Assembly: GCA_046563655.1 (NCBI GenBank)
Contig: CM102284.1
Coordinates: 4,774,001-4,838,000 of the forward strand
Reading direction: 5' to 3'
DNA: 64,000 nt
Source: Yuukianura sp. NJ FZ-2021
Taxonomy: Eukaryota
This document shows positions 18,001 through 64,000 of this stretch, one piece after another. The position numbers and the translations under genes are program-made. The notes beneath the pieces were generated by a model that was not told the DNA's origin, made no database searches, and saw nothing but the letters and a program-made list of their open reading frames with translations. Each line of letters opens with the position of its first letter. Position 1 is the stretch's first letter.

Positions 18001-18992
18001 AAATGATATCACTGAAGTTGACAGAGACTACATCGCTGGGCTTATGTACATTCGAGATTTTGAAGGCGACGAGAAAGCGATTGAGTACTTGGATATGCCG
18101 TTCTCCACGCCTTCCGCAAGTGGCCAGGAAATTCATCTGTCTTCCATTCACAAAACAATCACACTGGAAAATCGGCACGAGTATTTCAGTCTTGCACTTC
18201 AATTTCGGTAAGTCTCTCTGGATCCAAAATCTCCAAGTTTTAATTCTTTTCGAAATGTCAAACATGATTTGTTACGCATTTGTTTTTAGGTTGCATGAGT
18301 TTGATGAAGCTGTTGCTGCCGCGAGGGAGGGAATGGCTCGTGTTGTTCCAGTTCCACTGCTCAACTTGTTTACTGGCTACGAATTGGAGACGATGGTCTG
18401 CGGACATTCGGAAATTCCATTGGGATTGCTCAAATCTGTCGCAACATACAAAGGAGTTGAAGCAACGAATCCTCTAGTCATTTGGTTCTGGGAAGTAATG
18501 GAAGAGTTCACGAACGAAGAGAGGTCGCTGTTCATCCGCTTCGTTTGGGGAAGAACACGACTGCCGAGAACTATTGCAGATTTTAGAGGCAGAGATTTTG
18601 TTTTTACGGTAAGCTAGTCTTGAAAATCATGAATATTCTGGCTAAATAACTTAAGAGAATTGGCTATTTGGAAAACTAATTGTTTTGCACCTAAATTCCA
18701 GGTGATTGACAAGTACAGTCCACCGGATCACTTTCTTCCAGAGAGCTACACATGCTTCTTTCTACTCAAGATGCCAAGATACTCTTGCAAATATGTTCTA
18801 CGAGAAAAGTTAAAATATGCTATCCATTTTTGTAAATCAATTGACACGGATGAGTACGCGAGAGTGGCCATACCAGGAAATGGTCATGCTAATGGCGACG
18901 CTTCATCTGTGGAAGAAGAATTTCAGAGTCCAGTGAGTGACGAACCGATAATGCTGGACTACTCTTCACCAAGCGGTTCCGTACATTTTTAA
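1..18992 (+). CDS. HERC2: HERC2 giant HECT E3 ubiquitin ligase (multi-exon; 5'-partial, start codon just upstream of window)
   Basis: Window opens with [28 protein letters not shown] (HERC2 N-terminus). Domains in order: RCC1-like RLD1 (~1670-3260), cytochrome-b5-like ([12 protein letters not shown], ~5180-5470), MIB-HERC2 ([13 protein letters not shown]...[13 protein letters not shown], ~7660-7925), ZZ finger ([19 protein letters not shown], 10376-10510), DOC/APC10 ([13 protein letters not shown]), RLD2, RLD3, HECT with [19 protein letters not shown] at 18990-18992. Short GT-AG introns join the ORF fragments. Confidence 0.97.
7390..7450. repeat. Short AT-rich (TATAATAATTC)-like tandem repeat in a HERC2 intron
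   Basis: About 4-5 degenerate copies of ATAATAATTC/TATA are directly visible. Confidence 0.7.
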
Positions 18993-19163
18993 GGCATAGT
19001 TAAATAGCAAGTAGTTTTTAACTCTTTGTAATCAGTCAAATTTATGGAAGTGGACTGCTATTGTACCTGTTGTTTGATAATTACTTAAATTGTCAATTTT
19101 TATTTTGTTTTGTTATTCTCGTCATTTTCCAAACTTTGTACCAAAGACTTACTAAAAACAAGA

Positions 19164-33622: not shown

Positions 33623-35421
33623 ATGACACCGTCGACGGAAGCCCTGAGGAAGTTGCCACTTGTCATTGTTTTGGGAGCAACTGCCACAGGAAAATCAAAA
33701 TTGGCAGTGAGCATTGCTCGGCAATTTAAAGGGGAAATCATATCTGCGGATTCGATGCAAGTAAGAATTAACGTTGTTGACCTCTGTCTTCCTGTACATG
33801 GCTGCACCTTGTGATAATTAGGTATTGTAATGAACTTCCAGATTTACAAAGGATTGGACATCCTGACCAACAAGATGACCGAAACGGAAATGCAGGGAGT
33901 ACCACACCATATGATGTCTATCCTTGACGGACGGCAGCATTTTGACATAACCTTGTTCCAAAAACAAGCTCTACCCATTGTGAGTTTACTACCTACTTCG
34001 TAAACATATTTCAAACAAGTCTGCAACTGAATTGAAGTTACAATATTAATATTGGCATCTTCATTATATAGGTTGAACGCATTCTAAAGGATGGAAAGAT
34101 TCCCGTCATCGTTGGAGGAACAAATTATTACATTGAAAGTATACTCTGGGAAGTCCTTGTGACCAAAGGGAACCAGGAAGACGGAGTTCCAGCGGAGGCC
34201 TTGCATCAAAAAACACCAACCTCAACCTCACTCCTGACACCTTACAACCACGATTCTACTATCCCAAATCCTAATGAAATTCTGGATCTATTTCAACAGC
34301 ACCAAGGAAATGTCAATGACACAGATCTGGAACCCTATCTCTCTACGACACTTCACTCGACATTGGAGTTGTGCGATCCGGTCCGGGCTTCTACGCTACA
34401 TCCCAACGACAGAAGGAAAATTATTAGATCGTTGCAAGTTTGCTACCAAACTGGACGGAAACACTCAGAAATAATTGCGGAACAAAGGCAATTGTCAACC
34501 CAAGAAAGCAAGGTTGACGAAGACGCTGACACAAACACCAATCACAAGCATCATCTCGGTGGACCGCTGCGATTTGAAAATTCGCTTTGTTTTTGGATAC
34601 AAGCAGACCAGCAGCTTTTGCAACAACGCATTGACCAACGAGTTGACGAGATGGTTCAAAATGGACTGAGAAACGAATTGAACAATTACATCGACGATCT
34701 CAGGGCTGACGACACGTATGACCAAGATACATCACACTACTTATGAATGAAACTTTGACGAGTATTTGCTTACTAAATTCTTTATTTTAGGACGTTGGAT
34801 TTTACTAAAGGGCTTTTGCAATCAATTGGATTCAAAGAATTCAACAGTTACCTGCAACTACTGCCAGAAGAGCGACAGTGTCCTGTCGGAGACGCCCTGT
34901 TTGTTCAAGGCATTGACCTTCTTAAAATTGCTACTCGTCAGTATGCCCGACGCCAATTGAAGTGGATCACCCATCGGTTTCTACAACCAAAGAAACGTCA
35001 AGTTCCTCCAATTTATCGCCTAAATGGAAATCTAACTGACCACGACTCATGGGAAATCAATGTGACGCAACCAGCTCTGGCAATTTTGGAAAACCATCTG
35101 AAAGGAGATTTTGAGCACCCCTTACTTTTGGAAAGACTCGTTCCAGCCAGCAATGACGACAGTCAGGAAGATGGAATCGTCCGATACTGCCAAGTATGTG
35201 ATAACCGTGCTTTTGTTGGAAATGTACAATGGGAAGCTCATCTTCGTGGAGCAAAGCATAGAAAAATGAAGAAACGAAAGCAAATACAAACTTGGACAAC
35301 TAGTTCCGATTTTGCAGCAACGACAAGCCCACCCTCAAAGAAATCAAATTTTGGTGACAGCGTCGCCTACGACAAAACCGAAAGCGCAACGGTGCTTCCA
35401 ATTCCTGAAACAAACTCCTGA
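33623..35421 (+). CDS. TRIT1: tRNA dimethylallyltransferase (IPTase); exons 33623-33760, 33842-33979, 34072-34715, 34791-35421
   Basis: P-loop [70 protein letters not shown] and C-terminal zinc finger CQVC...[10 protein letters not shown]. Confidence 0.95.
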
Positions 35422-38500: not shown

Positions 38501-41500
38501 GGCGTCAAGTGCCTATTAGCCAACGGTGACGGTGCCAAGAAGACGCTTATTAGACATTAAACTCAAGACGCTACAAATGCTTTCACCGCTTCTACTTTCT
38601 CCAGAAAAAGCGCAAAGCGTTAAGTGCTCGTCTTTACTAATTTGGGGAAATGAGTCCATTGAAGTCAAGTAATTTGCAATTTGGAGACAAAATTACTTTA
38701 GTATTTAGAACAGTTCCAGAGTGAAAGCGAGCTACAGTGTAAGTGCTTTTGTTTTTAGAGATCATAAGCATCTAAATAGTTACAGAGGCTCATTCTGGAA
38801 GGTGTATTTTATTTATATAGGCACCAGAACTTACCGTTTCCCTTCGTCTGTGCCTGGACAATTTGAGAGGGAAGGCCAGTTCCAATTTTATTGGCAGCAG
38901 TAACATAAAAGCTGTATTTGGATCCACAGCCAAGTCCCTTGAGAATATGATTATTAGAGACTCCCTCTGTCTCTACTTCTTCCCAGTCACCATCTCCACT
39001 TCTGTAGTGGATAACGAACCCTGGGAAAACAACAAACTTTCTCTTTTGGCATCATGCGATTCACAATCACAAGGAAACTGGAGTTCCAGTGTTCCACTTC
39101 TCGAGTTCTTGCGGTTTAAGGGTCAGAGAGACTCATTCTCACCAGCTTTCAAGTACTGCCGGCCTCCGCTGAGAATTTCGTGGTCAAAGCAGCAGCGATT
39201 TCTCAGGAGAAATTAGGAAATGAGAAAACTGACTGACCTTTTATAGAAGTTCCGCCATTGGAGGGAACTGTCCATGCCATGTGAACAGCATCGTAAAAAG
39301 TTTCGATGATGTGGACTGATGGTGGAGGAGGAGGAGTTTGAACTTTGACATTGTAAGTTATGGAGTCCCGTCCATAGAGATTGAAAACAGTGCAAGTATA
39401 GTTTCCTTGATCAGCTACGGTTATGCCCTCAATCGTCAGCGTTCCAGTGTCACTCACCTGAAAATTTTCACGCAAATGCAAATTTTCGAATTAGAATTCA
39501 AAAACTAAAAATGAATTAAAAATATATGCTAAATTAGGCTGAAATTTACATGTTGACGAGAGGTCATCTCGATTTGACCTCCGTTGAACTTCCAGCGTTG
39601 AGTGGAAGTGGGTTTGCCGAGGCCGACAGCCATGCAAGCCAACTCCATTGTCTTCTTCCATTCAACGTCAATGGATTGATCAAAAGATGCTATCCTCGCA
39701 GGTACTAAATTTTGAACAAAAGTTTTAAAATTATGCAAAACTTTTGAAATTTTGAAACTGATTTGTTTTTAAATTCAGGTCATTGACCTGTGGCAAGCGT
39801 CGTAGCTCTAAAACGCGGTGTAGTGCCGCTTTCTCCCATTTTAGTTGAAGCTGATACCCAAAACTCGTATTGCTGATTTTCCTTGAGGTTGACGAACGAA
39901 AAGAAAGTTTCGTGCGGAAGTAAGTTTTTCTTTTCCTGAAAATCAAAATTTTGAGAAAATTTTTTTCAAGCAATTGCGAATTTTTTTTAACTTTACCACT
40001 TTTGCACTGTCTAGTGCCTTCATGTACAAAGTGTAGCGTTCAAGGCGTCCGTTTGGCGTTTCCGGTGGCAGCCATGACACCAAAATGGAACTACGAGAAC
40101 TTGGATGAACTTTGATCCCTCCAGGAGGACTTGGAACTAAAAAATTGCGATTTTGGAAAAACATTTTGGATCTTTTTTGAAAAGTGAATCGTACCATCTT
40201 CATCAGTGCTACAAATCAAAGGCTTGGAATACACTCCATCTCCTGCTAACGTCGAAGCGAGAACACTAATTGAGTAATTGGTCCATCTTCTCAGACCATG
40301 CAGAGTTGAAGACTTGACCTTTGACACTTTAACTTCAATTTCAGAAGGATCCAGAACATCTTCTCGGTGGAACTTGATTTTGTAGCCGTCGATGATTCCG
40401 TGTCTTCCTTCCAGCGGTGGGTCATCCCAGGTCAACTGAAGACTCTGAGAAGAAGTTGGCACACAAACTAGAGCTGCCGGTGGTAGAGAAGGTACTGGAA
40501 ATCAAAAATTTTTATCAAAATTTTGTGAAAATTTTGAAAACTGAAATTTTGATTTTTTTTCTAGAACCGTCAGTCAAAGTTGTTCCAATGACAGGAACCG
40601 AAGGTGGTCCAGGACCTTGAGAATTAAAGCCTTGAACCAAGACAGCGTATCGTGTGAACTTGTTCAGGTTGTCCAGGACAGTTGTGCCTCCAAAGTCGAT
40701 GCCAACCTGTTGAACATTGAAATTGCTACGTCAGTAGAAGTTTCATTTGATCTTGAACATAGGTTAGGTTGGGATATTAGGTTAGTGTAGTACAAGATGC
40801 TTACATCCACCGTTTTGAAGTGGAACCCATTAGCGTCAAGGGTGGAGATGGAGTTAGGACCATAATGAGGTGTTGTAAAGTGAGGCCCCAGTTCCGGTGG
40901 GAAAGCCAGCCCCACTTCCCTGTAACCCACGTAGTAGCCCAGTATGTTTCCATGCCAGAGATGCTTGAGTGGTGAGGACCACTTGACTCGTAACTCAGTT
41001 GCTGAAGCGAGTGATTCGATTTGGATATCTTCTGGAGCGCCTTCTGGAGCCTCCTCGGCTGTCGTGATTTGAACAAGTTCAGACGGTGGACTGTAGCCCA
41101 TGGAATTAGAAGCAAGGACTCGGATGTGATACGTTGTGGCTGGAGAAAGGCCGTCCACGCGGGAAGAAGTCTGAGTCGCTGGAACTGCTACTTCCTCCAC
41201 TTCAGCTTCAGTCCAAGTCTCTGAAATTTCAAAATTACCAATCAAGTTTCGGAAATTTTCTGAAAATTAACTAATCAAAATCAAAGGAAATGAAGTAATG
41301 GTATGATTAAGTTGCATTTTAGATCGGAATTATGGTATTGTATGATCTAAGTGATATGGCTAATACTTTCTTTAAACTTTTTTTTTTAAATTTCTACAGG
41401 GTTCAATATTGAAAAGTTTACAATTTACGTATTTACATGTTTACGAAAAAATTTTACCTGAAGGAAACTTGTACTGAATGATGAAGTTGATGAGCGGACT

Positions 41501-44500: not shown

Positions 44501-47500
44501 ACTTCCGTGATTAGGTTAAGTTAGGCTATACAACTTAAGCATATTTTCAATTTGCAACGTGTCTAAGCTTACCAATGACCTGGACATGGAGGTCTCTCGT
44601 GGAAGTTGTCCCTTGACGATTCTTGGCTTCACATCCATAAATACCTGTTTAGATTATTAAGAAATAGTTAGCAAAGTGTGTTTTCTTCGATGACTTTAGA
44701 TGCTTGGACTTTTTAGTTTGTGATAAAAACAGAAAATTCTGATTTTCGTGTCGATTTAAGTCGACTGAACTCCCAGCCAAAATTTTCAACAAACTTTTAT
44801 TATAATTTTTCATTATAGACAGTTATATACTTGTGTAACAATTTTACGAGAATTTTTTTTAGTCTAATTTTGAGGAAATTAAAAATTCGAGTATTTTCTT
44901 TTGTTTTTATATTAGTTTATGTTAGGTTATTATTTATGTTATGTTAGAAAGAATATGATTAAGTCCACCCTCATATCAATTTCTAGTGTTTGTCTATCCT
45001 TCTGCTTGATCAAAAACTGTTTTGTTTACCTTCGTCTTCACCCTGTTGAATTTGTTCAATAATAAGCGTCCCATTTGGATATACTTTTTGACGTCTGTTC
45101 ACTGGCAAGGCAGAACCACCTGTAAAGTTACAGTGAAAAGTTATTAAAGTTGGAGTAAATATTGCTCAGCTAGTTAAACACATTTCAGCGATGACAAATG
45201 CTTGAAACGCACTTTGAGCAGTACAGGGACATTTGAAATTTAATCAAGCGCTGGAGGTATACAAAAGCAGGGCGTGGTTGGGCTTTGAGCCGTCAACTTT
45301 CTTCCTGTTCTAAATGATTGATGGCCTCAAAAGAGACAGTTACAATCAAATCCTTTTTTGGTTTCAAAGGGAATTGAATGCACTAAAGACATGATGGAGG
45401 GAGGAGGAAAAGTTCGAAAAGTGAAAGCCCAGCTTTCACTTCCTTCTCAAGCAATCTGATTAGCACGTTAATTGTCAGGATCTGCCTCCAGGTTACATTA
45501 GACTATATGTTATGCTAGTTTAACATAGAGTTAAGTTTAAAAAGCATACCTCGTTCCCACGTGATGCTGTCTATAGGGTAACCGGAAACGGGACATTGAA
45601 TGCTAAAGTGCTTTCCAGCAACTGCTTTCACTGGTGGAATTGGTCGAATAAATGGTGGACCTACAAAAAAACTGGTGTAATTGAAAACGTAGATTCTAAA
45701 GATGTAATTTTACTTTTACACTAATTTGCAATTTTCGTAAATTTTGTAAAAGTTGTTACCGTAAATGTTCAAGCGTGCGGAATGGGAGACGCTTCCCATG
45801 CTATTATGGGCTAAGCAACTATAAAGGCCTCCATCAAACGGCTCCACATTGGAAATGTTTACGTGGGAAATCACATTATCGTGAATCGTTACATACTGAC
45901 CCACTAGGTACCTTGAATCAACAAAAATCAGGGTCAAAGGTCAACGCCGTAGAAAAAGTTTGAACAAACTAAAAGCTCCAATTTCGAAAACAAGACTGAA
46001 AAGTTCAGAACTCAATGTGATAGTTTAAGGGTCAAAGGTCAGCGTAAACATTCTTATACTTTTTTTTTCATTTTTCTATAAAAGTTCAACTTTAAAAAAT
46101 AAAATAGTACAATTAAATATAAATTCAAAAAATGAGGTCAAAGGTGAATTTCTTTAAAGCTAACCTCTCACTTTCCGGAAGTGGAAAGCCGTCGAGGGTC
46201 CACTGAAACTGCGGCGGTGGATTTCCGACGCCCGTACACTTAAGGGACACCGAAGGGCCCGGTTGGAGCGTTTGTTCAGTAAATCTGTAGACGAGTTCTG
46301 GAACAATCGCTACATAAGACAAAGACAATGGAACTGTTATGCCTAGGCCCATTGAGAAGTCTTTTGGACTGAATTAAATAGAGCGAACGAGGCTTCTGGC
46401 TAGTGGTGGCAGAGGATTTGGGAAGAAAATAGTTTCCATTTACTTTGTTCCTTACAAGGGCTTTCTCTGGGCAGAGAAAGCGCCAAAGGAACTTCCAAAA
46501 TTACAAAAAGTGAAATCAAAATCCAGGATTTGTGGTAATGTGGCAAGACGAGAAAAAGGAGCTGAATGGAAATGGAGTGGGATCTGCGTCAGCGCTTTGC
46601 TTACAACCGAGTCGGAGCTGGGCACTGTCTTGAGCAGACGCTTGGTCATTCGTTGCAAAACACTGGAACATTCCAGCGTCTTCAGGCTCCACTGAACTAA
46701 TCGTCAGTTCCAATCGACTTCCGGATAATGACCAACGACTGCAAATAAGTTTCCAAGCGATTAAACACTTCATTTTCTTAAGTAAAGAAATTAGGTTAAG
46801 ACGTTAGGTTATTGATCTAACAAAGTTACTGTTAGGTTTGGTGCTTAACCTTGCCTAGCCTAACTGAAAACATAAAGTTAACGAACCTTGATGGTCCGCC
46901 GCCAATCCGCTTTCCATCTTTGAACCACTCAACAGCATCGACTGGGCTGCCTGTGATGAGACACCGAAATGTCATGCTCCTGCCGACCTCAATGACCTGT
47001 GACTTTGGAGTCACTTGAACATGTAAAGGTACTAGAAAGAAAGCAAAAACAAAGTGAAGAAGAACATAGTGACAACAAAAATAGTTTTTGAGAGAAGAAA
47101 GCATCCTTGTTTTGCATATACGTCCCTAGGGCTCCACTTTCACCTCATCATTTATGCACCAAAAAGAATCAATTTCAAAAGTGTACAGTACTTTCTCCCC
47201 TCTAGCACAACATTATTCAAAATTTGAAACTTTACCAGTGCTCACCTACGTATCTTTTGTGTTATGTTTTCGGGAGGCTGTAAATAACCTAACGTGAACT
47301 TCATCCAACCACAACTGAAAAGACTTTCTAATTTTGAAATTTAGTTTCAAATCTAAACTAAAAACTAGAATTTGAAAAAGATCTAATGTGTAATGTTAAA
47401 GACTAAAAACCTGTTTAAAATAAAACTCAAAACGCGTTGGAGTATTTACTTCCTGAAAGTTACCAAAAAGAATCAATTTCAGAAGTGTACAGTACTTTCT

Positions 47501-50500
47501 CCCCTCTAGCACAACATTATTCAAAATTTGAAACACTAGCTGTGCTCACCTACGTATCTTTTATGTTATGTTTTCGGGATGCTTTAACTGACCTAACGTG
47601 AACTTCATCCAACCACAACAGAAAAGACTTTCTAATTTTGAAATGTTTCAAATCTATTATAAACACTAAAAACTAATTCTAAAAACGAGTTAATGTTAAA
47701 GACTAAACCCGTTTAAAATAAAAATCAACAAAGTTAGCACATTTACCTCCTCTCAAAGTTTTGAAAACGGTGAATTTTCCTTGAAATCTGGCTCACTAGC
47801 AGTTGTTTCTTTGAAGAAATTTTTGTCAAGTAATTTTAGAAAATTGTTGAAGATTTATCCTGACCTTTGACCTCCGTGCGAGGAACTTTTACCAAAACTT
47901 TAATAGGCAAAATAAAAATTTGAAAAAAGAATTGATTGCTCTGGTACAAGCAGAATTTGTCCACGGAAGAGGGCCATTGCAGTGAAAGTGTGTCCGAGTG
48001 AAAGTTACAAATTGAATGGAATGATCCCCCTTATCGACTGACGTTCCCTCCCTGCCTATCAATCCAGACAATGAAAGATTGACCTCGAGGCAGGGAACGT
48101 AACCAGTCTAGGCGCGGATGAGGAAACTCAGGTCATTGACGTCCGCTTGAGACTTGAACATGTACTACGAGTATGCGGAAAGCTAAGACCTCTTGCCCTT
48201 GAGGCAATGATAAACTATGGCCGCCATGACTTCAATTTTCAAACGTGCTTTTCCTATGTTCGCTGGAGATAGAAAGCATGAAGCCTTCAGTCCAAAAACG
48301 CCTTCTCAGATGTATGTTCTACATTTTTCTTCTTTGGTCTCTCCAAGTCTTTCGTAACAGAATTTGCCAAAGAGCTTTAACACTTTGTAAATGTCAAATC
48401 CTCCATTCTGGAAGTACCCACAAGAGGAGAGTGTTGGAATCAATAGGTTAGGCTGAGCCTAACCTAACTGGTCTGAATTGGTTGAAGTGAAAGTGGAGCA
48501 GAAAAAGTAGAAAGTTAGATTTAAAAAAAAGTTCTGAACGTAACTTTGCGTTGTATTTTAAGTTAGACTAACTCTTGTCTCATAGATTAGGTTGGCCTAG
48601 TGTTAGATCGTATCTTGTTTAAGTTAGGATCGATTAGGTTGTAAAGTTAATGTTAAGTCATACAAGTTAGAATGGAAGAGGACAAAGGGAAGAAAGACGA
48701 AGTGCGTAAAGTGGTGCGTCAATTGAGAAGTTGTGGAGGGAGTAACTTTCTTTTGCTTTCTCCGTGTGAAAAAAGAAGTTGAAAAAAGAAGTCTCACCAT
48801 AAACATTGAGCTGAAAGCGGACTGTGTCGTGGGAAATAGAATTATTGACCCAACAGAGGAAGCGTTTTGGAGCGTCTTCAGGTTGGACTTGAGTCAGAAG
48901 AATGGGTCCCTCCTGAGATGAATGTCTCGCCTTGGTGGTTGTCGTAGTTCCAGAACCACTCCCAGTAACATAACTTCCCAATATTTCATCCTCCCTCTCC
49001 TGGAACCATCTGCCAACGGAACAAAAACAATATGTTCACGAATTGGGCAATGGCAAAAATAACCTAACTTATACGGAGCTAACGTAAATCACAAAGGCTA
49101 ACTTTAAAGAAAACTGGAGCTGCGGGAGTTGTACAAAGCTGGAGAAAGTGGACACAAATTTTGAGTTCTAGAAGTTCTTGGGACAGAAAAGGACGAAAGA
49201 CGGTGTGCATAAAGGATGCATTGAAGTGGAAGATTTCAATTTGATAGGAAAATGATTGGTGACGACGGTTCGAGTCCCACAGCCGCCAAAGTGACTGTGG
49301 CCCCACCATGGTTTATGGTCCCACCAAGGTGGCGCAATACCGATAGGTAGCCGAGAAAAACTTACAGATACGTTGGCGGAGGACTTCCGGAAGCAAGGCA
49401 TCCCAACTGGACATCATCTCCAGCGTTGGCTTTTATTGTGACTTGTTTTGGCACCAAAAGTTTTACAGGTTCTGGACCATCCGAATCTTAAACAAGAAAA
49501 AGAAAAACAATTTTGTTAAAAAATGCCTGCGTAGATGGAACGTAAACGAAGAAGGAATTGATGATTTCCGTGATTTTCGGAAATTTAAGTTTCAGATAAG
49601 ATCAGCAGAGCACTAGCAAAACGAGGACACCGAACTTTTTTTAGGACAGTCGAACTAGAGTTCTTCATTTCGTCAGAGAATTGTTGATTTAGCCATTTAC
49701 AAAAGTAATCCGGGATTGTGCCAAAGTGAAAGCAATATCAGCACTGCTTATCTCCAAAGTACTTTCACCGTTTGCTTTCAACACCAACAGCAAACGGAAA
49801 AGGCATCAATTTACACCTTGTTCCAAGGGGTCACGACCTCTTTCTTCTTACTTTCTAGGAAATGAGTCGGCATTTCCACCAAAGAAAGAAAAAGTTTTTC
49901 AAAACAAAACTTTTTGGAAAAAGAAAGTACTTTAGATGTTTGTTGTTCACTTTCGTTCCCCCTTTTACTCAAGAAACGAATCAGTACAAAGTAGGGGAAA
50001 TGAAAGAGAGGTCAGGTCACAAGAAAGTTTTCCAAATTTCAGCAAAGGCACAGCATTCCAACAGTCCAAATTCATTTCACGTCCTCAGCATAAAAGAAAG
50101 TACACACTAGAGAGACGGCTAGAAAAGAAAGGAGAAAGTAGAAGACTTTCACTTTAGAATTCGAAGCGATTTTTTTAGTCTTCTAGGTTTCTAAAATAAT
50201 TGCCATATCCTATTCCTCTATACTTGAAGTTCCATTTCAGTAGCGTCTAGCTTCTTTTCTAGAAACCCGGTTTTAAGCGATCAGGAGACGCTTGCTGCTG
50301 CTTTAGCTCTCTTATACTACTAGCACCCCCGTCTTCACCTTCCGAGTCACGCACTTCCCATTCCAATCTTACACTTTCCCTGTGAGAAAAAAATTTATGA
50401 CGGATATCATCCTCTTAGGGAGGAGAAGCCAGAGTTCTTTCTTTGAAATAAAAACCGTGGAATTTGCACTTTTCAAAAAACGAAGGAAGAAAAAGCTGCT

Positions 50501-57700: not shown

Positions 57701-60316
57701 ACAGCGAATTATTTTCTCCAGCGTTTCTTCCTTTTCTTTTGTTTTCTCCATCATTAGAGTGAAGAAGAATGACGCAAATCACTATGCATAACTAGAAGGC
57801 TCTCTTCTAGTATTTGATCTTCTGATCTTTCAGGAAGCACAGTCTACAACTGGGCATTCCAATTCCATTTTTGTGTTCAAACGAGACCCTTTGTCTGTTT
57901 TTGAAAAAATTTACATAGGCCTTGTGCCAAATTGTGCTAATTTTGTTCCAGAAATCACATTCAAAGGATTCCTTCTTTTTCTATTTGAAGAAAAAAAAAT
58001 TCTGTTTCAATTTTGAAAATAGAATGCAAAAAAGCCAACTACGGATGGAAAAAAAGCACAACGCGATTGAAATGAAGTCAAAATGTTGTTCCAATTTCCT
58101 ACTTTTGGAAACAAACTTTTTTGATTTTCTTTCTCCATAATTTTATTTGTTCTAAAAAAAATGGAACACTGCGTGTTTAAGAATGGCAGTAAACTTTTTT
58201 CTTCGAAAAGGAAGAAAAAGTGAGATATTTCATTTTGAAAAGTTAAAATTGAAAAAAGCGAAAACAAAATGAGCAACTCGGTCGTAAAAGTTTGTTATAT
58301 TTGAACAGAATGTGACAAGACAGGACCAAGATTTTCATGGAGTTGGAGAAAGCACAACTTTTTTTTTGAAGAAGAATTGAAATATGCGTTTCCATTTTGG
58401 TGCATGTTCAAACAAGAGGGTACGAAAAAAGAGAAAGGAGAGATCCTTGTGTGCGTCGCTCAATCTTCTTCTCCCTTCAAAATTCATATCAACTTTTTTC
58501 GTTTTTTACATTTTTACCAAAAAAAAATTCTAACTTTCTCTCTCGCTTCGTCTAAAGTTCGCCTAGAAACTGAATAGGATGACAACAACACGGAACAAGA
58601 GAAAACGGAACTTCTGAAGAGATAATAGGACTTAGAAACCCTGTTTTCGAACAATAGAATACAATAAGCTTCTCCAGTGAACCAAATCTGCTCATATCGA
58701 CATCTTGTTAGTTACGTGTTTTCATTTTCAAAATTTCCATTTTGTTACCTAATGCTCTACCTATGTGAGTTTACGAAAAAGTGAAAGTGGCTTAAGCCTT
58801 TATGACGAGGAAACAGAAAATGAGGAAGTAGGAATTATGCATAGTGGGACTTTATTTTCTTATCATCATAAATTGGGAAGTTTCTGCTCCAGTTTCATCC
58901 TAAAACTAAAACTAGACTAGACTAGTTTTAGAGACTAGAAAGTAGAAAGTGGCTTCTACTAATCTAGAATCTTCTACTAGTTCTCTAACCTACTTTCTTC
59001 TTGTCTTCTATCCCCATGCTTCGTGGTACTACAACAACCAAATTAATCATCAGGCAACCCTCAACTAAACGACGACTCAGCATAAATTCTCATCAGATTT
59101 GTCAACTTTCTTCTTAAAGCTTCTCCTTAGCTTCCTCGTACCACAAGGGCTTAATTTTCTATTTTCCAAATTGGGTGAAAACTTTGGTCTTAATAGAAAT
59201 GCTACAAATTGAATTTTATTATTTATTGTATTATTAAAATTTATGGGTTTCAACATGTTGACTTTCACTTTAAAAAAAATATAGCGTCAAGATAATAGCA
59301 TTTCTTCATCACAGCGTCACTTTTCTCTTCCACTCAATCTGAAGTTTTACGTTTTTAGTGACCGTTGTTGCTTTAATGAATTTTCTGAGCTGAAGAGCCC
59401 GTAAGGTCATTTGTATTTTTTTAGTAGTTTCGAAATAGTTTTTTTAAGAAAAGTGTTCTTAGATTTGTACTTAAACGGGTGAGAGCGAAGTAGGAACAAC
59501 TTTTGAAGAAGACTTTCATGACACAACGAGTGTATGAAATTGTTCTAGAAAGTGATAAATTGTTCCCAAGCTGTTTGGACCATGTCTCATCTTCTTTTTC
59601 AGCTGTCGCTCCTCTGTCCTTGTACTTTATAGAATCTAGTAGGAAGTAGCTCTAGAAAACTAGAGTTTGCAGCAGTAGTCTAATATTTTCTCAACTTCAT
59701 TGTTCTCCTGTGTGTCTTTTCTGGATCGTAAAAGATAAAAAGAGAATATTTTATAAAGTCAGAGTTAGCAAGTGAAAGCGATAGGAACACCATTGTTGAA
59801 GGTGTAGAGAAAGTTAGACAATGACAATCCTACTTTACTAAAAAGTTTAGCTTCACTTTTCTGTTTATGAATTCAAAGTTACAGTTTTCAACTTGTTTTT
59901 TAAGGTTCCCAAGCAAAAGTTTAAAATTATGGTTCCACCATTTCCAAAATTTTGAAAATGATAAAGTGGACTCTGCCACAACCTTCTGCTGGAGTTTCAA
60001 CTTCCTTGAATCTTTTCCTTCAAGAAGTGGATTATGGGTGCAAAGTAACAGATCAGGTCAAAGGTGAGCAAAGTAAAACTTTCTCTTCCCTTGTTTTAAA
60101 AAATGGCGCCATTTCCGTTTTTTCCCTCAGTTTTTCGGGATATACCCCGAGGGTGTTCGTACTTTCAAAGTCTTTAAACTTTCTAGGTCTAATATTTTTT
60201 CCCGCCAAGAAAAGAATCTACGACTCTTCTGAGCTTTCTTTACTTTCACCTTCTAAGCTCCTTCCTAAGCCTCACATTCACTTTTGACACTTTTCTGGCT
60301 TCCTTGTGTCACAGTA

Positions 60317-60867
60317 TGAGGTCATGGACCTCATCGGAGAACAATTAGTCAATTAGTTAAGTTAAATTAAGTAGGGCGAATGCCCATAAGTGGTTGTCCC
60401 CGGTCTCCCTCCCTTTTTGTGTCAGCAGAGCCGACAGAAGAACTCAAGCAGACTCTCTCTCCAACTGCCATGCCGTTAGCAGCTCCTCCAGACAGCTCCG
60501 CCAATGTCAACCGCCTGATCGCCAGCAGAGAGGTCAACAGGTCAGATCAGCCGTCGGCCAGTGATTGGCCTATGACCAGTGATTGGTCTGCCAGTGATTG
60601 GCATTGTTTTAGCCAGTGATTGGCTTTGGTTTGGCCAGTGATTGGCCGGGAGCCTGTGATAGGCTTTTCCCTTCCCCGGATCGGCGTTTGGTTAGTGTAT
60701 GGCCCTTCAGGCCCTTTCGTTTAGCCCAAAGGGCTTAGTTAGTTGTTAGTATTTTGAGAGAGCTACGATTCAATAAATCGTAGCCCAAGAGATCGGTTTT
60801 TGCTCGTTTTTGTTTCATTTATTCATTGTGGGATTGAGCAGTGCGGAGAGGCACTGCTCAAGCCTCA
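60317..60867 (+). repeat. Probable 5' LTR (551 bp, TGAGG...CCTCA)
   Basis: TG...CA ends with a 5-bp terminal inverted repeat, AATAAA at 60772-60777, and a PBS 4 nt downstream. The 3' LTR is outside the window, so the left boundary is inferred. Confidence 0.75.
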
Positions 60868-60871
60868 TATC

Positions 60872-60881
60872 TGGTGCCCCG
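60872..60881 (+). promoter_or_regulatory. Primer-binding site TGGTGCCCCG
   Basis: TGG-initial sequence just after the LTR-terminal CA; complementary to a tRNA 3' end ...CGGGGCACCA, which is how I recall the metazoan elongator tRNA-Met ending (unverified for this host). Confidence 0.75.
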
Positions 60882-61412
60882 AGCCTTAACTGCCCCTTCA
60901 GAGACATGAGCATTTCATTATAATGGATGATTGATCAGTGATCAATCATCGATTCATGTAAAAATACCGCAACAATCGGTTCGGATGCCGATCATTGGGT
61001 AGCGGAAGGCATGGTTCCCCCTTTTGTACATAAGCAAGTGCAAAGTTCGGTTTTGCGCATTTTTGGTAAAAAGACATTTTTGATTTTAATTTTTTTCGTT
61101 GAGCGCGGTCCGAACCCCGATTCAACTCTCCGATTTCACTTTTCATTTTTTGTAAAGTCAATTACTAATTATATGTACAAAGTTTAAATGCATAATTAAC
61201 CATTCCTAATTAATTCCTGATTCCTAAAATCGCGTTTTTGTTTCTTTTTTGGTTATTTCATGCAGCTGTAAGCAACTAGCAAATTCAGTATCGCTCACCC
61301 CGCGCTCAGATCGGTCGAACATGTGCGCTCCGTTAGCGATCTCTCCTTTGTTTTAACGGTTTTTTCTGCTACTCCAAAAACAAACAGATTTTTTTTGAAT
61401 TCTCTTGTAACC

Positions 61413-62378
61413 ATGGCTACTAATGATGTCAAAGACGCAGAAATTGCGGATCTTACTGAGCAATTACGCGTATTAGAAACAGTGATGGATGACTTGCGTG
61501 CACAGCAGCGATTTTCCGCCGCGCCCGCTCCGGCCGCGCCCGCTCCACAAGTAGTGCTTGTAGAACAAGCACCTGTGATTCCGATTCCAAAATATTCACA
61601 GAAAATTCCAATTTCTTCCTTTTTTAAAGAAGCAGAAGAATATTTTACGCTCAAAAATTCGGATGAAAAGTCAAAAATCGTTCTTATTGGCTTCATGCTT
61701 CATAAAGATTCGGACATTTTTCGTTGGTGGCTGGATATCAAAGAAAGTATCACCACATGGGAACAATTTAAAGCCGCTTTTTTAAATTACGAAGGCGTTT
61801 GTCAGTCTACAGACAAGCTTCTTTGTGATCTTTTCGCTAAAAAGCAATTTTTTTCAGAAGCTTTTGAAACTTTTGCGTGGGATGTCGCAAATTTTTACAA
61901 ACGAATTGACCCGACCGTGTCAAACGAAACGATACGCGAACGGATTGTAAATTCTTGTCTTCCGGAAATTTCAATTTTGCTTAGATCTTCCCGCGCTACG
62001 AATGTAGCCGAGCTAATTGCGCATGGCAAGCAAATTGTGGGCGATCTCAATCGGACTAGACGTTTTGAAAACAAGCCTTTGATTCGTGCGACAGCTTCTG
62101 ACGATTTTTCCGATTTCAATCAAAGACTCAAGGACAGAGCAGCAGCACGTCAACCGTCTAGAGCGGCTTACATTCCCAGGGAATCGTTTCAACCGCAGCC
62201 TATTGGGCCTATTTCAGTCCCACCCGAAAATTCTGGGGCAAGTCAATTCTTTCCAAAGCAAGACTCGGAGGCTCAAACAGCTCCAATTTTTTCTGCTATG
62301 ACTCCAAAACAACCGGAAATTTCCTATTCGCGCCCAGACCGCGCTCCTAATATTCCGCCAAACTCCGACGGAAGGTAG
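61413..62378 (+). CDS. gag: Retrotransposon Gag (ORF open from 61323; probable start ACCATGG at 61413)
   Basis: N-terminal coiled-coil-like segment, retrotransposon-gag-like core (FRWW...ITTWEQFKAAFL...KQ..SEAFETF), Pro-rich tail; no CCHC knuckle; TAG at 62376-62378. Confidence 0.85.
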   Translation: MATNDVKDAEIADLTEQLRVLETVMDDLRAQQRFSAAPAPAAPAPQVVLVEQAPVIPIPKYSQKIPISSFFKEAEEYFTLKNSDEKSKIVLIGFMLHKDSDIFRWWLDIKESITTWEQFKAAFLNYEGVCQSTDKLLCDLFAKKQFFSEAFETFAWDVANFYKRIDPTVSNETIRERIVNSCLPEISILLRSSRATNVAELIAHGKQIVGDLNRTRRFENKPLIRATASDDFSDFNQRLKDRAAARQPSRAAYIPRESFQPQPIGPISVPPENSGASQFFPKQDSEAQTAPIFSAMTPKQPEISYSRPDRAPNIPPNSDGR

Positions 62379-64000
62379 GACGGGAGCTCCCTATCCTTCC
62401 GAAATCGGATTTTTCCAAAGCAGCTCCCACAATCAAAATCAAAATTCGGAATTCCTTTTATTTTGCTCATTTGGATTCGCTATCAACTTATTCGCACATT
62501 TCCGCTTCTTTAGCAAAAGAACTCGGAATGATCATTCACAAAGGGCAAATTCAACTAACGATTGGTGACTCAAGTACAATCAGTACTTCCGGAACAGGAG
62601 AGTTACATTTCAAAATTTATACGGACGATTACATTCACACAGTCCACATTCTCCAGTCTCCGCCTTTTCCAATTATTCTCGGACTTGACTTTATTCGGAA
62701 ATATCATTTGGTCCCGGATTTTCATGACGGTACATTTTCTATTCTCGGAACTAAAACAAGAGGTCGACTCGAATACTATTTTCAAAACCGTGAGTACTTA
62801 TGTGCATTGCTCGGTCTCAGTGACGCGCAAACTGAGGAACTGAAGCATTTGACCGATAGTTTTCCAGCACTTTTCTCTTCTCAGTTAGGCCAAACTGATT
62901 GGGTGAAGTGTGAGTTGACACCGTCTCCCGGACCTCCTATTTCCTCTAAACCCTATCCTGTTAGTCCTTTCAAGCGACAGCTCATTTCAGACAACATTTC
63001 GGAAATGTTGAAATTGGGCGTCATTGAACCCTCTGATTCTGAGTGGGCCTCCCCTGTATATATGCACACTCGTGACAAAGGTCAGTCATGGAGATTTACT
63101 TTGGATTTACGGAAAGTAAATGCTCGGCTACCTCATGATCCTTTTCCTATTCCTAGATTAGATTATTTATTTCATAACTTAGGTCAAGCTAAATTTCTTT
63201 CGGTGATTGATCTTAAGAAGGGCTACTGGCAAGTGGCCATGGACCCACAGAGCGCAAAGTACACCGCTTTCATTTGTCATGAGGGTAAATTTCAATTTAC
63301 GCGCATGCCCTTTGGTTTAAAGTCGGCCCCTTCTTTATTTCAACGCCTTGTAAATAAAATTTTAGGCACAGCGCGAGGACGCTTTGCTGACGGTTACATA
63401 GACGATATAATCGTCTATTCTAGTTCCTGGAAGGAACATTTAGAGCATCTCAAATACGTTTTTGAGAGATTAAATGCGGCTGGTCTCACTGTAAATATGC
63501 AGAAATGTGAGTTCGGTAAAACTACCCTCAAGTACTTAGGGTACATTGTTTCTCCAAATGGAATTGAGAGAGATCCGGATAAGATTTCCGCTGTTTCTGA
63601 TTTTCCCAGGCCGACGACACCCAAACAAGTTCGTCAGTTTTTAGGTCTTTGTTCTTGGTATCGACAGTTTGTCGAAAAATTTTCGGAGCTCAGCGAGCCC
63701 CTGAACCGGTTATTACATAAGGATGTTCCTTTTGTTTGGTCAGACGACCAGGAATCTGCATTTTTAAGGCTCAGAGCAGCCATTTGTTCGGATGATTTGG
63801 TTTTGGCTTTCCCGGATTTTTCCAAAGAGTTTATTATTCGGACGGACGCGTCACGAGTTGGAGTATCCGCGGTTTTAGCCCAAGAAATTAACGGATTTGA
63901 GAGACCCATTGCATTTGCGAGCCGCTCTTTAAATAACGCTGAGAAGAATTACGGTTCCAGCGAAATTGAATGTGTCGGTATTTTATTTGCTTTAAAGAAA
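62351..64000 (+). CDS. pol: Retrotransposon Pol (protease-RT-RNase H; 3'-partial), -1 frame relative to gag; absent from the ORF track
   Basis: Frame opens after TAA at 62348-62350. Retropepsin AHLDSLST...IILGLDFI; RT GVIEPSDSEWASPV, WRFTLDLRKVN, IDLKKGYWQV, RMPFGLKSAP, YIDD at 63395-63406; RNase H IRTDASRVGVSAVL...PIAFASRSL. Confidence 0.95.

Follow-up and report, generated by a model that had tools for sequence, protein, structure and literature searches.

Palindromic repeats clustered in LTRs have been described in Sireviruses, plant Ty1/copia elements whose repeated motifs (RMs) were reported by Bousios et al. 2010 (PMC2829016). There, many short dyad motifs (10-20 nt) are grouped in the LTR upstream of the promoter, with symmetrical subunits parted by 0-5 bases and an outer symmetric sequence that varies by family while palindromy is retained; a function has been proposed only (PMC2829016). 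A second comparable system is LTR12/ERV-9, which carries U3 tandem repeats with a recurring CCAAT + GATA motif (PMC11853044), forming an NF-Y-bound enhancer with a variable number of repeats (PMC11853044, PMC3730095, PMC4982600).

Here, we analysed a 64,000-nt window of Yuukianura sp. NJ FZ-2021 (GCA_046563655.1, CM102284.1:4,774,001-4,838,000, forward strand) containing an array of six 15-nt units within 110 nt, each a perfect dyad composed of a 5-nt arm, the spacer GTGAT and a second 5-nt arm. This array is a variant of a kind already known, namely palindromic LTR repeat clusters and CCAAT/GATA repeats, and the statement of the initial annotation that no element like it has been described was too strong in view of the Sirevirus clusters (PMC2829016) and the LTR12/ERV-9 repeats (PMC11853044). 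In contrast to the Sirevirus RMs, however, the carrier is an animal Ty3/gypsy element of a hexapod with the order protease-RT-RNase H, the core is CCA/TGG instead of CGG-CCG, and six (perhaps seven) copies are found here versus 8-32 there (PMC2829016). Furthermore, the spacer is invariant and asymmetric and makes a CCAAT box together with the right arm, the covariation occurs among units of a single array, and the internal region within the window holds no copies of the unit. The repeats of LTR12/ERV-9 differ in that their units are about 41 bp long, with no palindromy described for them, whereas the present ones measure 15-22 bp and are dyad-symmetric; their CCAAT spacing of 24 or 41 bp accommodates adjacent NF-Y trimers, for which the 15-22 bp found here are too close.

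The Su(Hw) binding-site array of Drosophila gypsy resembles our array in that a short motif recognised by a protein is reiterated, with brief T-rich stretches in between, in non-coding sequence at the 5' side of an arthropod Ty3/gypsy element. It is, however, located in the transcribed leader and not in the LTR. The Su(Hw) motif is also unrelated and non-palindromic, and arm covariation is not described for it. Retroviral RNA elements of U3/R or the 3' UTR (export, response) are LTR-derived cis structures of the 3' end with multivalent protein binding, but they form long complex folds and not arrays of 15-nt hairpins. The array here is without a match in Rfam: the window yielded 0 matches at the gathering score, and a search of 60250-61350 at E up to 5 returned noise only (best MIR169, 25 bits versus a cut-off of 80).

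Carrier element and layout of the array

The carrier is a Ty3/gypsy element, apparently intact, in a springtail-like hexapod, and it runs off the window. Its pol frame matched RVT_1 at 6e-36 along with RNase H and, weakly, a protease, in the order protease-RT-RNase H; at the protein level, it is closest to complete gypsy-type polyproteins that include an integrase, and both the integrase and the 3' LTR of the carrier fall past the window end. The array is located about 200-310 nt 5' of a PBS-like site, followed by gag and pol (Table 1), and therefore lies in a probable 5' LTR (U3). Since the 3' LTR is outside the window, the LTR boundaries are putative. Neither a second LTR nor an LTR pair turned up in a direct-repeat search of the window. 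When the LTR and the internal part were compared with the remaining sequence by blastn, zero further copies appeared, and no tRNA gene for comparison with the PBS is present in the 64 kb. In a window without a second LTR, the designations "LTR" and "U3" used previously depend on the location 5' of the PBS-like site, gag and pol. The sole AATAAA of the LTR sits 107-216 nt downstream of the array, the U3/R border being putative, and the 3' part of the LTR is rich in hairpins, with three perfect stems of 5-11 bp versus 0.61 expected (12/500 shuffles reach three). The evidence base for the array is one copy with six paralogous units in the 64-kb window.

Table 1. Features of the array and its carrier element (positions within the window)
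Feature	Position	Strand	Description
Probable 5' LTR	60317..60867	+	TG...CA ends; 5-bp terminal inverted repeat TGAGG/CCTCA; putative boundaries
Unit 1	60556..60570	+	GGCCA-GTGAT-TGGCC; CCAAT on minus strand; 26.9 bits (unit covariance model)
Unit 2	60574..60588	+	GACCA-GTGAT-TGGTC; pair 2/14 altered on both sides
Unit 3	60589..60603	+	TGCCA-GTGAT-TGGCA; directly adjoins unit 2; pair 1/15 altered on both sides
Unit 4	60611..60625	+	AGCCA-GTGAT-TGGCT; together with its linker, a 22-nt tandem duplicate of unit 3 and linker
Unit 5	60633..60647	+	GGCCA-GTGAT-TGGCC; same sequence as unit 1
Unit 6	60651..60665	+	AGCCT-GTGAT-AGGCT; A-T to T-A at the pair adjoining the spacer; without CCAAT; TGATAG (WGATAR) at 60657
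Possible degenerate seventh unit	60690..60704	+	GGTTA-GTGTA-TGGCC; 11/15 positions match the unit consensus
Hairpin, perfect, 9 bp	60762..60784	+	contains the sole LTR AATAAA (60772-60777); probable R region
Hairpin, perfect, 11 bp	60834..60861	+	3' end of LTR; probable U5
PBS-like TGG... stretch	60872..60885	+	read from sequence; 4 nt past the putative LTR end
Leader palindrome	60926..60950	+	perfect 11-bp stem with AGT triloop; within a 33-nt near-palindrome (60922-60954)
Gag-like ORF	61413..62378	+	counted from its first ATG; Pfam families all below cut-off
Pol ORF	62471..64000	+	protease, RT, RNase H; Ty3/gypsy type; still open at window end

All six inverted repeats with a GTGAT spacer are present with the positions and sequences first reported, and their arms are complementary in 6/6. 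The minus-strand sequence is CCAATCAC for units 1-5 and CCTATCAC for unit 6. Positions 6 and 10 are G and T, respectively, in 6/6 units, which constitutes a constant asymmetry, and the orientation of GTGAT is identical throughout. The arms are exactly 5 bp long: of the next three columns outwards, pairing is seen in no more than 4, 3 and 2 of the six units, respectively, and mostly by wobbles; that the symmetry ends exactly at the edges of the 15-mer counts for pairing within the unit. The linkers had been regarded as unrelated, which does not hold for all of them: a single position distinguishes the two linkers of 7 nt, and a period-22 repeat with 86% matches is detected by TRF. The 22-nt tandem copies formed by units 3 and 4 with their linkers show three differences, two of them at the partner positions 1 and 15. 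The array grew via tandem duplication of 15-22-nt pieces; afterwards, the arm sequences drifted while the two arms of each unit stayed complementary, and the core GTGATTGG remained constant and directional throughout.

With regard to the possible seventh unit, 11 or more matches to the consensus occur in 14/120,872 background 15-mers. Its arms pair with two U.G wobbles and therefore only as plus-strand RNA; its local pairing probability in sense RNA is 0.02, and the unit covariance model missed it at E up to 10. Over the window, the same model detected no further array and a sole extra match on the minus strand (10403-10417, 18.2 bits), which we rejected as an additional unit, as it has an arm mismatch and sits in a host coding exon. 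A three-core pattern scan of a collection of genome contigs returned three loci, all on contigs of bacterial MAGs and unrelated to the array: each is a simple tandem repeat with a unit of 15 or 27 nt, lacking dyad arms as well as any retroelement context. Two of the literature matches to the 11-mer (a qPCR primer and an oligo over part of the poliovirus IRES) are chance identities. An iron-responsive element, considered in view of the CAGTG in units 1-5, was discarded, as no model matched and the pairing register is unsuited.

Complementarity of the arms

All 30 arm pairs are Watson-Crick, and at three of the five pair positions both partners vary, whereas a change of just one partner is never seen; the earlier observation that arm changes are always compensated is thereby corroborated. 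The absence of G.U among these pairs is atypical of RNA stems and consistent with DNA. The 11-mer core occurs, with one mismatch at most, seven times in the window, five of them within the array (shuffle mean 0.68; 0/100 reach seven). Among the 70 GTGAT and 58 ATCAC of the window, five paired flanking positions are found only in the six units, the other 122 having three or fewer, and no other 110-nt stretch in the window has six perfect 5-5-5 palindromes.

The observed pairing score was reached in 2/500 column shuffles, and full pairing was kept in 104/200,000 column-wise shufflings (exact value 1/2160). Sliding the partner by 1-3 columns left just 7-50% paired, and when whole right arms were re-dealt among units, 30/30 pairs were kept in 2/720 permutations: the original order and the exchange of U1 with U5, which have the same sequence. 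Shuffle controls overstate independence here because the six units are related (U1 equals U5, and U4 and U6 share a pair). The minimum history comprises four double substitutions; if eight random substitutions fell on the 60 arm positions, the probability of every arm remaining complementary would be 1.3e-7. For two random substitutions within one 15-mer, the probability of hitting complementary arm partners is 0.016 (analytic; the relevant figure, as the simulated counterpart of 0.111 counts cases with both substitutions in the spacer), and at least four separate events are seen. These values bear out the proposal that the dyad symmetry is non-random and unit-specific. Neither plain tandem duplication nor a plain CCAAT array is sufficient, as already argued in the initial annotation: unit 6 is devoid of CCAAT and retains both pairing and spacer.

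Symmetry of this type might also arise without any selection, if template switching in a quasi-palindrome, by reverse transcriptase or the host replisome, uses one arm as the template for the other, whereby an arm mutation is erased or mirrored in a single step. Retroelement replication is switch-prone, and every change in the array is an exact mirror image, with no intermediates. A single switch is reported to make perfect stems together with multi-base compensatory changes (PMC8794818, PMC5453318, PMC3820800), and that matched changes can appear without selection counts against selection on pairing (PMC8794818). Nevertheless, we consider such an origin improbable: the arms measure just 5 bp, and the authors of the study concerned call the role of switching in the maintenance of short stems "less clear", on circumstantial evidence (PMC8794818). 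Loop inversion, a footprint listed there, is absent, GTGAT having the same orientation in every unit (PMC8794818). Moreover, mirroring would have to outpace point mutation at all 30 pairs, and both the invariant spacer and the sharp 15-nt boundary are left unaccounted for.

Predicted folding by strand

The six hairpins had been proposed to expose GUGAU pentaloops in the 3' UTR of the sense RNA, which our predictions do not support. An all-local structure of sense RNA reaches -40.1 kcal/mol versus -60.2 kcal/mol for the MFE (z = -6.0, 0/200 shuffles), in which whole units are paired with each other (U1:U5 and U3:U4) in helices of 12-14 bp, including G.U at positions 6/10, and the local pair probability of U1, U3, U4 and U5 is about 0. 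If the pairing span is restricted to 30 nt or less, sense RNA forms the local hairpins at 0.88-0.98 in 4/6 units, and at about 0.27 in U2 and U3. On the minus strand, be it RNA or ssDNA, all six local hairpins are predicted at 0.86-0.98 in the 484-nt U3-R context, and the MFE equals the local hairpins for plus ssDNA, minus ssDNA and minus RNA (z = -4.4 to -6.4). Folding thus predicts local hairpins on minus-strand cDNA or antisense RNA and, for four of the six units, not on sense RNA at equilibrium. We know of no function for hairpins in minus-strand U3 cDNA.

A single hairpin is weak (-4.8 to -6.9 kcal/mol). This weakness, the evidence base of one copy, the lack of a known function for such hairpins in minus-strand U3 cDNA, the lack of a sense-RNA fold in 4/6 units, the absence of G.U, the missing Rfam match and the missing Gag knuckle all count against selection on pairing. 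As to the latter, a zinc knuckle of Gag reading the loop guanines was considered as support and dropped, as CCHC is absent from the gag translation and from all plus frames of 61201-64000.

The stable sense-RNA fold could itself be the selected state, with units pairing among each other either in cis, as a compact 3'-UTR domain via U1:U5 and U3:U4, or between two genomic RNAs, as a dimer linkage. In a table of plus-strand unit duplexes, every unit pairs most stably with a second copy of itself (-20.6 to -24.8 kcal/mol, versus -6.5 to -20.9 kcal/mol off the diagonal, the identical U1/U5 excepted), and self-complementarity demands the same mirrored substitutions as a hairpin does. The leader furthermore contains a separate 33-nt near-palindrome, and it is in the leader that retroviral dimer sites are located; for a dimer site in U3, we know of no precedent. 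The in-cis fold is unsupported by the covariation, because U3:U4 is mismatched at the outer positions, in contrast to the perfect self-complementarity of every unit. Six consecutive antiparallel duplexes joined by linkers of 0-7 nt would likely be sterically awkward, and pairing between units gives the invariant spacer no reason. We regard unit-to-unit pairing as very improbable.

Putative promoter motifs and the best account of the array

The inverted CCAAT box is intact in 5/6 units, and the invariant spacer constitutes its 3' flank; unit 6 reads CCTAT on the minus strand and has WGATAR instead, in agreement with the original remark that this unit lost CCAAT yet remained paired. These features would also fit a purely DNA-level array, in which reiterated NF-Y CCAAT boxes and/or palindromes for a dimeric factor serve a U3 promoter or enhancer and no hairpin ever forms. 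However, the NF-Y footprint excludes the left arm of the unit, and because this arm is not read, NF-Y specificity cannot tie positions 1, 2 and 5 to 15, 14 and 11, leaving the arm covariation over. NFI-type sites spanning neighbouring units would be irregularly spaced (N5, N2, N9, N9, N5). A symmetric homodimer site as the sole cause is disfavoured by the constant G/T at positions 6/10 together with the absence of mixed arms, which a homodimer tolerant of several outer bases should accept. The G/T asymmetry, unneeded by such a site, counts for the hairpin reading.

Several published observations favour the DNA-only array. For instance, LTRs coincide with 40% of the NF-Y sites of K562 cells, and CCAAT boxes lie about 80 bp 5' of start sites in either orientation (PMC3730095); the WGATAR of unit 6 parallels the CCAAT + GATA repeats of LTR12 (PMC11853044). 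In Sirevirus LTRs, the dyad-symmetric repeats precede the TATA box, transcriptional activators of retrotransposons are described as being marked by dyad symmetry, and such repeats have been read as DNA-level regulatory sites, which also counts against selection on pairing (PMC2829016). In addition, arm pairs without wobble are what duplex symmetry predicts. On the other hand, all five CCAAT bases are critical for NF-Y (PMC3730095), and unit 6 is therefore not an NF-Y site, yet it retained dyad and spacer. Two bound NF-Y trimers need at least 24 bp between boxes (PMC4982600), whereas the boxes here are spaced by 18, 15, 22 and 22 bp, so that neighbouring units would not be occupied together; at 33-44 bp, every second unit would be far enough from the next for simultaneous NF-Y binding. 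Altogether, we consider a role in duplex DNA alone rather doubtful.

Selection for intra-unit pairing combined with overlapping use as LTR promoter is in our opinion the best account of the array, with a rough probability of 0.4. In this model, the array would be a repeated module within U3 of the probable 5' LTR, with purifying selection acting on base pairing inside each unit. When U3 is single-stranded, each unit would fold back into a hairpin of 5 bp whose 5-nt loop is constant, and a protein may read this loop. The strand concerned, as preferred by equilibrium folding, would be the minus strand, either as first-strand cDNA synthesised immediately upon the first strand transfer or as antisense RNA, and sense 3'-UTR RNA would qualify only with local or co-transcriptional folding. 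In its duplex form, the array most likely doubles as LTR promoter with five NF-Y-type inverted CCAAT boxes and one GATA-like site, and this second, CCAAT/GATA constraint would explain the invariant "loop".

Beyond selection on pairing as such, it is possible, though on balance unlikely, that the units are true hairpins on the single-stranded element and represent a new cis-acting signal for replication or RNA handling, laid over a CCAAT promoter and with outer pairs diversified for self-pairing. Such a signal would be a multivalent array of 5-bp stems showing one fixed pentaloop, where the preferred partner of each unit is the unit itself, or its counterpart in the second genome, and not a neighbour. 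Duplex DNA would then be read in the 5' LTR, and the hairpins would form once the 3' LTR has been transcribed or reverse-transcribed.

The U3 of an LTR is usually read just as a duplex-DNA promoter, and the array offers a compact, statistically clean case in which this reading is insufficient, since a directional CCAAT site inside a dyad with covarying arms is not predicted by NF-Y binding. It is also a small case, with 15-nt units and four natural compensatory variants. If the pairing constraint fails elsewhere, the array would be a conventional enhancer of repeated CCAAT boxes whose history is unusual. If instead it proves true in other copies, short LTR repeats may carry two overlapping codes, one of protein sites in DNA and one of hairpins in RNA or cDNA, which would provide a testable account of the palindromy of Sirevirus RMs, so far unexplained.

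Arm pairing in the six repeat units

Parsing positions 60200-61100 recovered all six units (U1-U6, each a 5-nt arm, the spacer GTGAT and a second 5-nt arm) described by the initial annotation, and in each of them the right arm is the exact reverse complement of the left. On the minus strand, U1-U5 read CCAATCAC and U6 reads CCTATCAC. All 30 arm cells of the unit alignment are Watson-Crick, with zero G.U pairs; three of the five pair positions are altered on both sides and none on one side only. In shuffle controls, which overstate independence since all units are paralogous copies at a single locus, the observed covariation score was reached by 2 of 500 column shuffles, and re-dealing whole right arms among units kept 30/30 pairs in 2 of 720 permutations, namely the identity and the exchange of U1 with U5, whose sequences are the same (column-wise re-dealing: 1/2160). 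Sliding the partner column by 1-3 positions lowered pairing to 7-50%.

By parsimony, at least four double substitutions are needed (two at pair 1/15, one each at 2/14 and 5/11). The probability that eight random substitutions over the 60 arm positions preserve complementarity in every arm is 1.3e-7, and that of two in a single 15-mer yielding a complementary pair is 0.016 (a simulated 0.111 for this case includes both changes falling in the spacer). Throughout the window, which holds 70 GTGAT and 58 ATCAC, five complementary flanking pairs occur at the six units only, the remaining 122 sites having at most three. The 11-nt core, allowing one mismatch, occurs seven times in 64 kb, five of them inside the array (shuffles: average 0.68; 0/100 reach seven). 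The dyad symmetry ends at the unit edges, beyond which successive column pairs are paired in 4/6, 3/6 and 2/6 units, mostly by wobbles. The non-random dyad symmetry proposed earlier is thus upheld, chance or a by-product of duplication being very unlikely given the permutations and substitution probabilities.

The linkers (TAT, none, TTGTTTT, TTGGTTT and GGG, in order) had been called unrelated, which holds except for the two 7-nt ones: these differ by a single base, and a period-22 array (86% matches) is called by Tandem Repeats Finder. U3-U5 thus derive from tandem duplication of a unit together with its linker. The 22-nt copies containing U3 and U4 show three differences, two of them at the partner positions 1 and 15. 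Such mirrored changes could also arise by template switching, which inside quasi-palindromes can introduce both in one event (PMC8794818) and would symmetrise the arms mutationally, without selection. However, the arms here measure 5 bp, and its role in maintaining short stems is called "less clear" by the authors of that work; 6/6 units lack the loop inversion counted among its footprints, and the mechanism accounts for neither the constancy of the spacer nor the abrupt unit edge. We therefore consider this origin improbable.

A possible decayed seventh unit (11/15 matches) lies at 60690-60704, where the unit covariance model detected none. Its arm pairing needs two U.G wobbles and is thus available to plus-strand RNA only, which could be a weak hint of RNA-level constraint, or mere decay via two C-to-T transitions.

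The carrier element and its surroundings

The window contains no LTR pair, and sensitive blastn found no further pieces of the LTR or internal region in it. Downstream of the array, a gag-like ORF (first ATG at 61413) matches no Pfam family above cut-off and has no zinc knuckle; the following pol ORF, with a weak protease match, RT (6e-36) and RNase H, continues past the window end. Among 7,999 scored candidates, 971 proteins matched pol at E <= 0.001. The best are gypsy-type polyproteins of full length that include integrase; the nearest of them (63% identity) comes from a short environmental contig, and named ones are arthropod "K02A2.6-like" proteins and a protein of the springtail Orchesella dallaii (47%).

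The LTR probably spans about 60317-60867, has the form TG...CA and carries a terminal inverted repeat of 5 bp, a PBS-like TGG stretch following 4 nt past its putative end. Its sole AATAAA (60772) lies half inside a perfectly paired hairpin of 9 bp (60762-60784), resembling the poly(A)-signal hairpins that occur in retroviral R regions, and an 11-bp hairpin lies at its 3' end. Judging from the predicted LTR extent, the PBS-like stretch and the AATAAA, the array probably belongs to U3, with the poly(A) signal 107-216 nt downstream of it. At the putative 5' edge (60316-60334) lies a hairpin of 8 perfect base pairs (ATGAGGTC / GACCTCAT, 3-nt loop); its arm sequence reappears as CCTCAT at the putative 3' edge, making the exact LTR ends uncertain. 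In the leader, about 50 nt past the PBS-like site, lies a near-perfect 33-nt palindrome (60922-60954; 11-bp perfect stem with AGT triloop at 60926-60950), which from where it lies may be a hairpin for dimerisation or packaging. It holds the heptamer CAGTGAT, as U1-U5 do, in a different register to the dyad axis.

Elsewhere in the window, the top relatives of the TRIT1 exon are three springtail proteins (45-47% identity; at most 44% for the others among the matches listed), which makes the host a springtail-like basal hexapod. A 183-nt direct repeat at 47158-47644 (two copies, 94% identical, starts 304 nt apart) bears no relation to the LTR.

Table. Features of the window and of MAG contigs sharing the 11-mer
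Feature	Location	Position	Strand	Description
U1	window	start 60556, 15 nt	+	arm-GTGAT-arm reverse complement (sequence read and script parse)
U2	window	start 60574, 15 nt	+	as U1
U3	window	start 60589, 15 nt	+	as U1
U4	window	start 60611, 15 nt	+	as U1
U5	window	start 60633, 15 nt	+	as U1
U6	window	start 60651, 15 nt	+	as U1
HERC2-like host gene	window	200-19000	+	long; ZZ, APC10/DOC and HECT exons
TRIT1-like tRNA isopentenyltransferase	window	34072-35421	+	C-terminal zinc finger
FN3-domain exon	window	40664-41266	-	
11-mer	MAG contig L001	7990-8041		within tandem repeat, coding-like
11-mer	MAG contig L002	7930-8240		within tandem repeat, coding-like
11-mer	MAG contig L003	8001-8041		within tandem repeat, coding-like

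Folding of either strand

Single units form weak RNA hairpins (-4.8 to -6.9 kcal/mol). Each 15-mer is a near-full palindrome once G.U is allowed at the outer spacer positions 6/10, so sense RNA favours pairing between units: its minimum free energy structure, at -60.2 kcal/mol (z = -6.0), contains U1:U5 and U3:U4 helices, whereas six local hairpins reach -40.1, and U1, U3, U4 and U5 have local pair probabilities near 0, likewise in the 484-nt U3-R context. These folds weaken the proposal that the sense 3' UTR carries six GUGAU loops. Restricting pairs to a 30-nt span, as a rough proxy for folding during transcription, gives 0.88-0.98 for four units and about 0.27 for U2 and U3, which abut each other. 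On the minus strand, the 6/10 wobble becomes an A.C mismatch, and six local hairpins are consequently the optimum both as RNA and as ssDNA (ssDNA z = -5.6), with probabilities of 0.86-0.98; plus-strand ssDNA is intermediate (0.45-0.83).

The stable sense fold might imply that the units serve to pair with one another. Yet each unit is perfect with itself, but pairing U3 to U4 leaves mismatches at the outer positions, so that covariation gives no support to such pairing in cis. Unit-to-unit RNA pairing, whether in cis or between two RNAs, we hold to be very improbable. A unit-by-unit duplex table names its own sequence as the best partner of every unit, consistent with a fold-back hairpin or with pairing to its counterpart in another RNA molecule. 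For the plant MIR169 precursor, Rfam gives a sub-threshold match (60554-60651; 25 bits, cut-off 80; E = 0.023) that is produced by the long U1:U5 helix and is regarded as noise.

CCAAT boxes, published parallels and the favoured reading

U1-U5 are intact inverted CCAAT boxes and U6 matches WGATAR; an NF-Y-type site would explain the invariance of GTGATTGG in U1-U5. A purely DNA-level regulatory array would have a precedent in LTR12/ERV-9, where reiterated CCAAT and GATA repeats are described as an NF-Y-bound U3 enhancer (PMC11853044). In human cells, LTRs are reported as the largest class of NF-Y sites, NF-Y needing all five CCAAT bases and the box typically lying ~80 bp upstream of start sites (PMC3730095). 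However, this reading leaves the left arm and the mirrored changes unexplained, and U6 cannot be an NF-Y site. Moreover, the boxes are spaced 18, 15, 22 and 22 bp apart, whereas two NF-Y trimers bound together are stated to need at least 24 bp (PMC4982600), so only alternate units could be jointly occupied. As a complete account we rate it somewhat less likely than the favoured reading. A symmetric homodimer site as the whole story is unlikely, considering the fixed G/T asymmetry at 6/10 and zero mixed-arm units. A single forward-oriented CCAAT lies outside the dyad units at 60501, 55 nt upstream of the array.

Word searches of the open-access literature, which leave absence unproven, covered the motif itself, CCAAT/NF-Y tandem LTR repeats, dyad symmetry in LTR retrotransposons and springtail LTR elements; none of them turned up this array or any account of covarying arms in the repeat units of an LTR. 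The array's closest published analogues are the LTR12 repeats and the repeated motifs of plant Sireviruses, and the novelty initially claimed is weakened by both precedents. Sirevirus LTRs are described as carrying 8-32 copies of a 10-20-nt dyad-symmetric motif in their upper half, upstream of the TATA box, with a CGG-CCG core and outer symmetric sequence varying between families; its authors propose a regulatory role and say that testing is needed (PMC2829016). In a general survey of LTR structure (PMC3601003), stem-loops are mentioned chiefly for R and for the borders of the LTR. The 11-mer also occurs in three bacterial-labelled MAG contigs, within plain 15- or 27-nt tandem repeats without dyad arms, which we attribute to chance.

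Our tentative verdict (probability about 0.4), drawn from one copy of the element, is that base pairing within the units may be under selection in a single-stranded form of U3, while the same DNA would double as a CCAAT/GATA promoter module. As to the strand on which the units would pair, fold predictions point to the minus strand and precedent to sense RNA.
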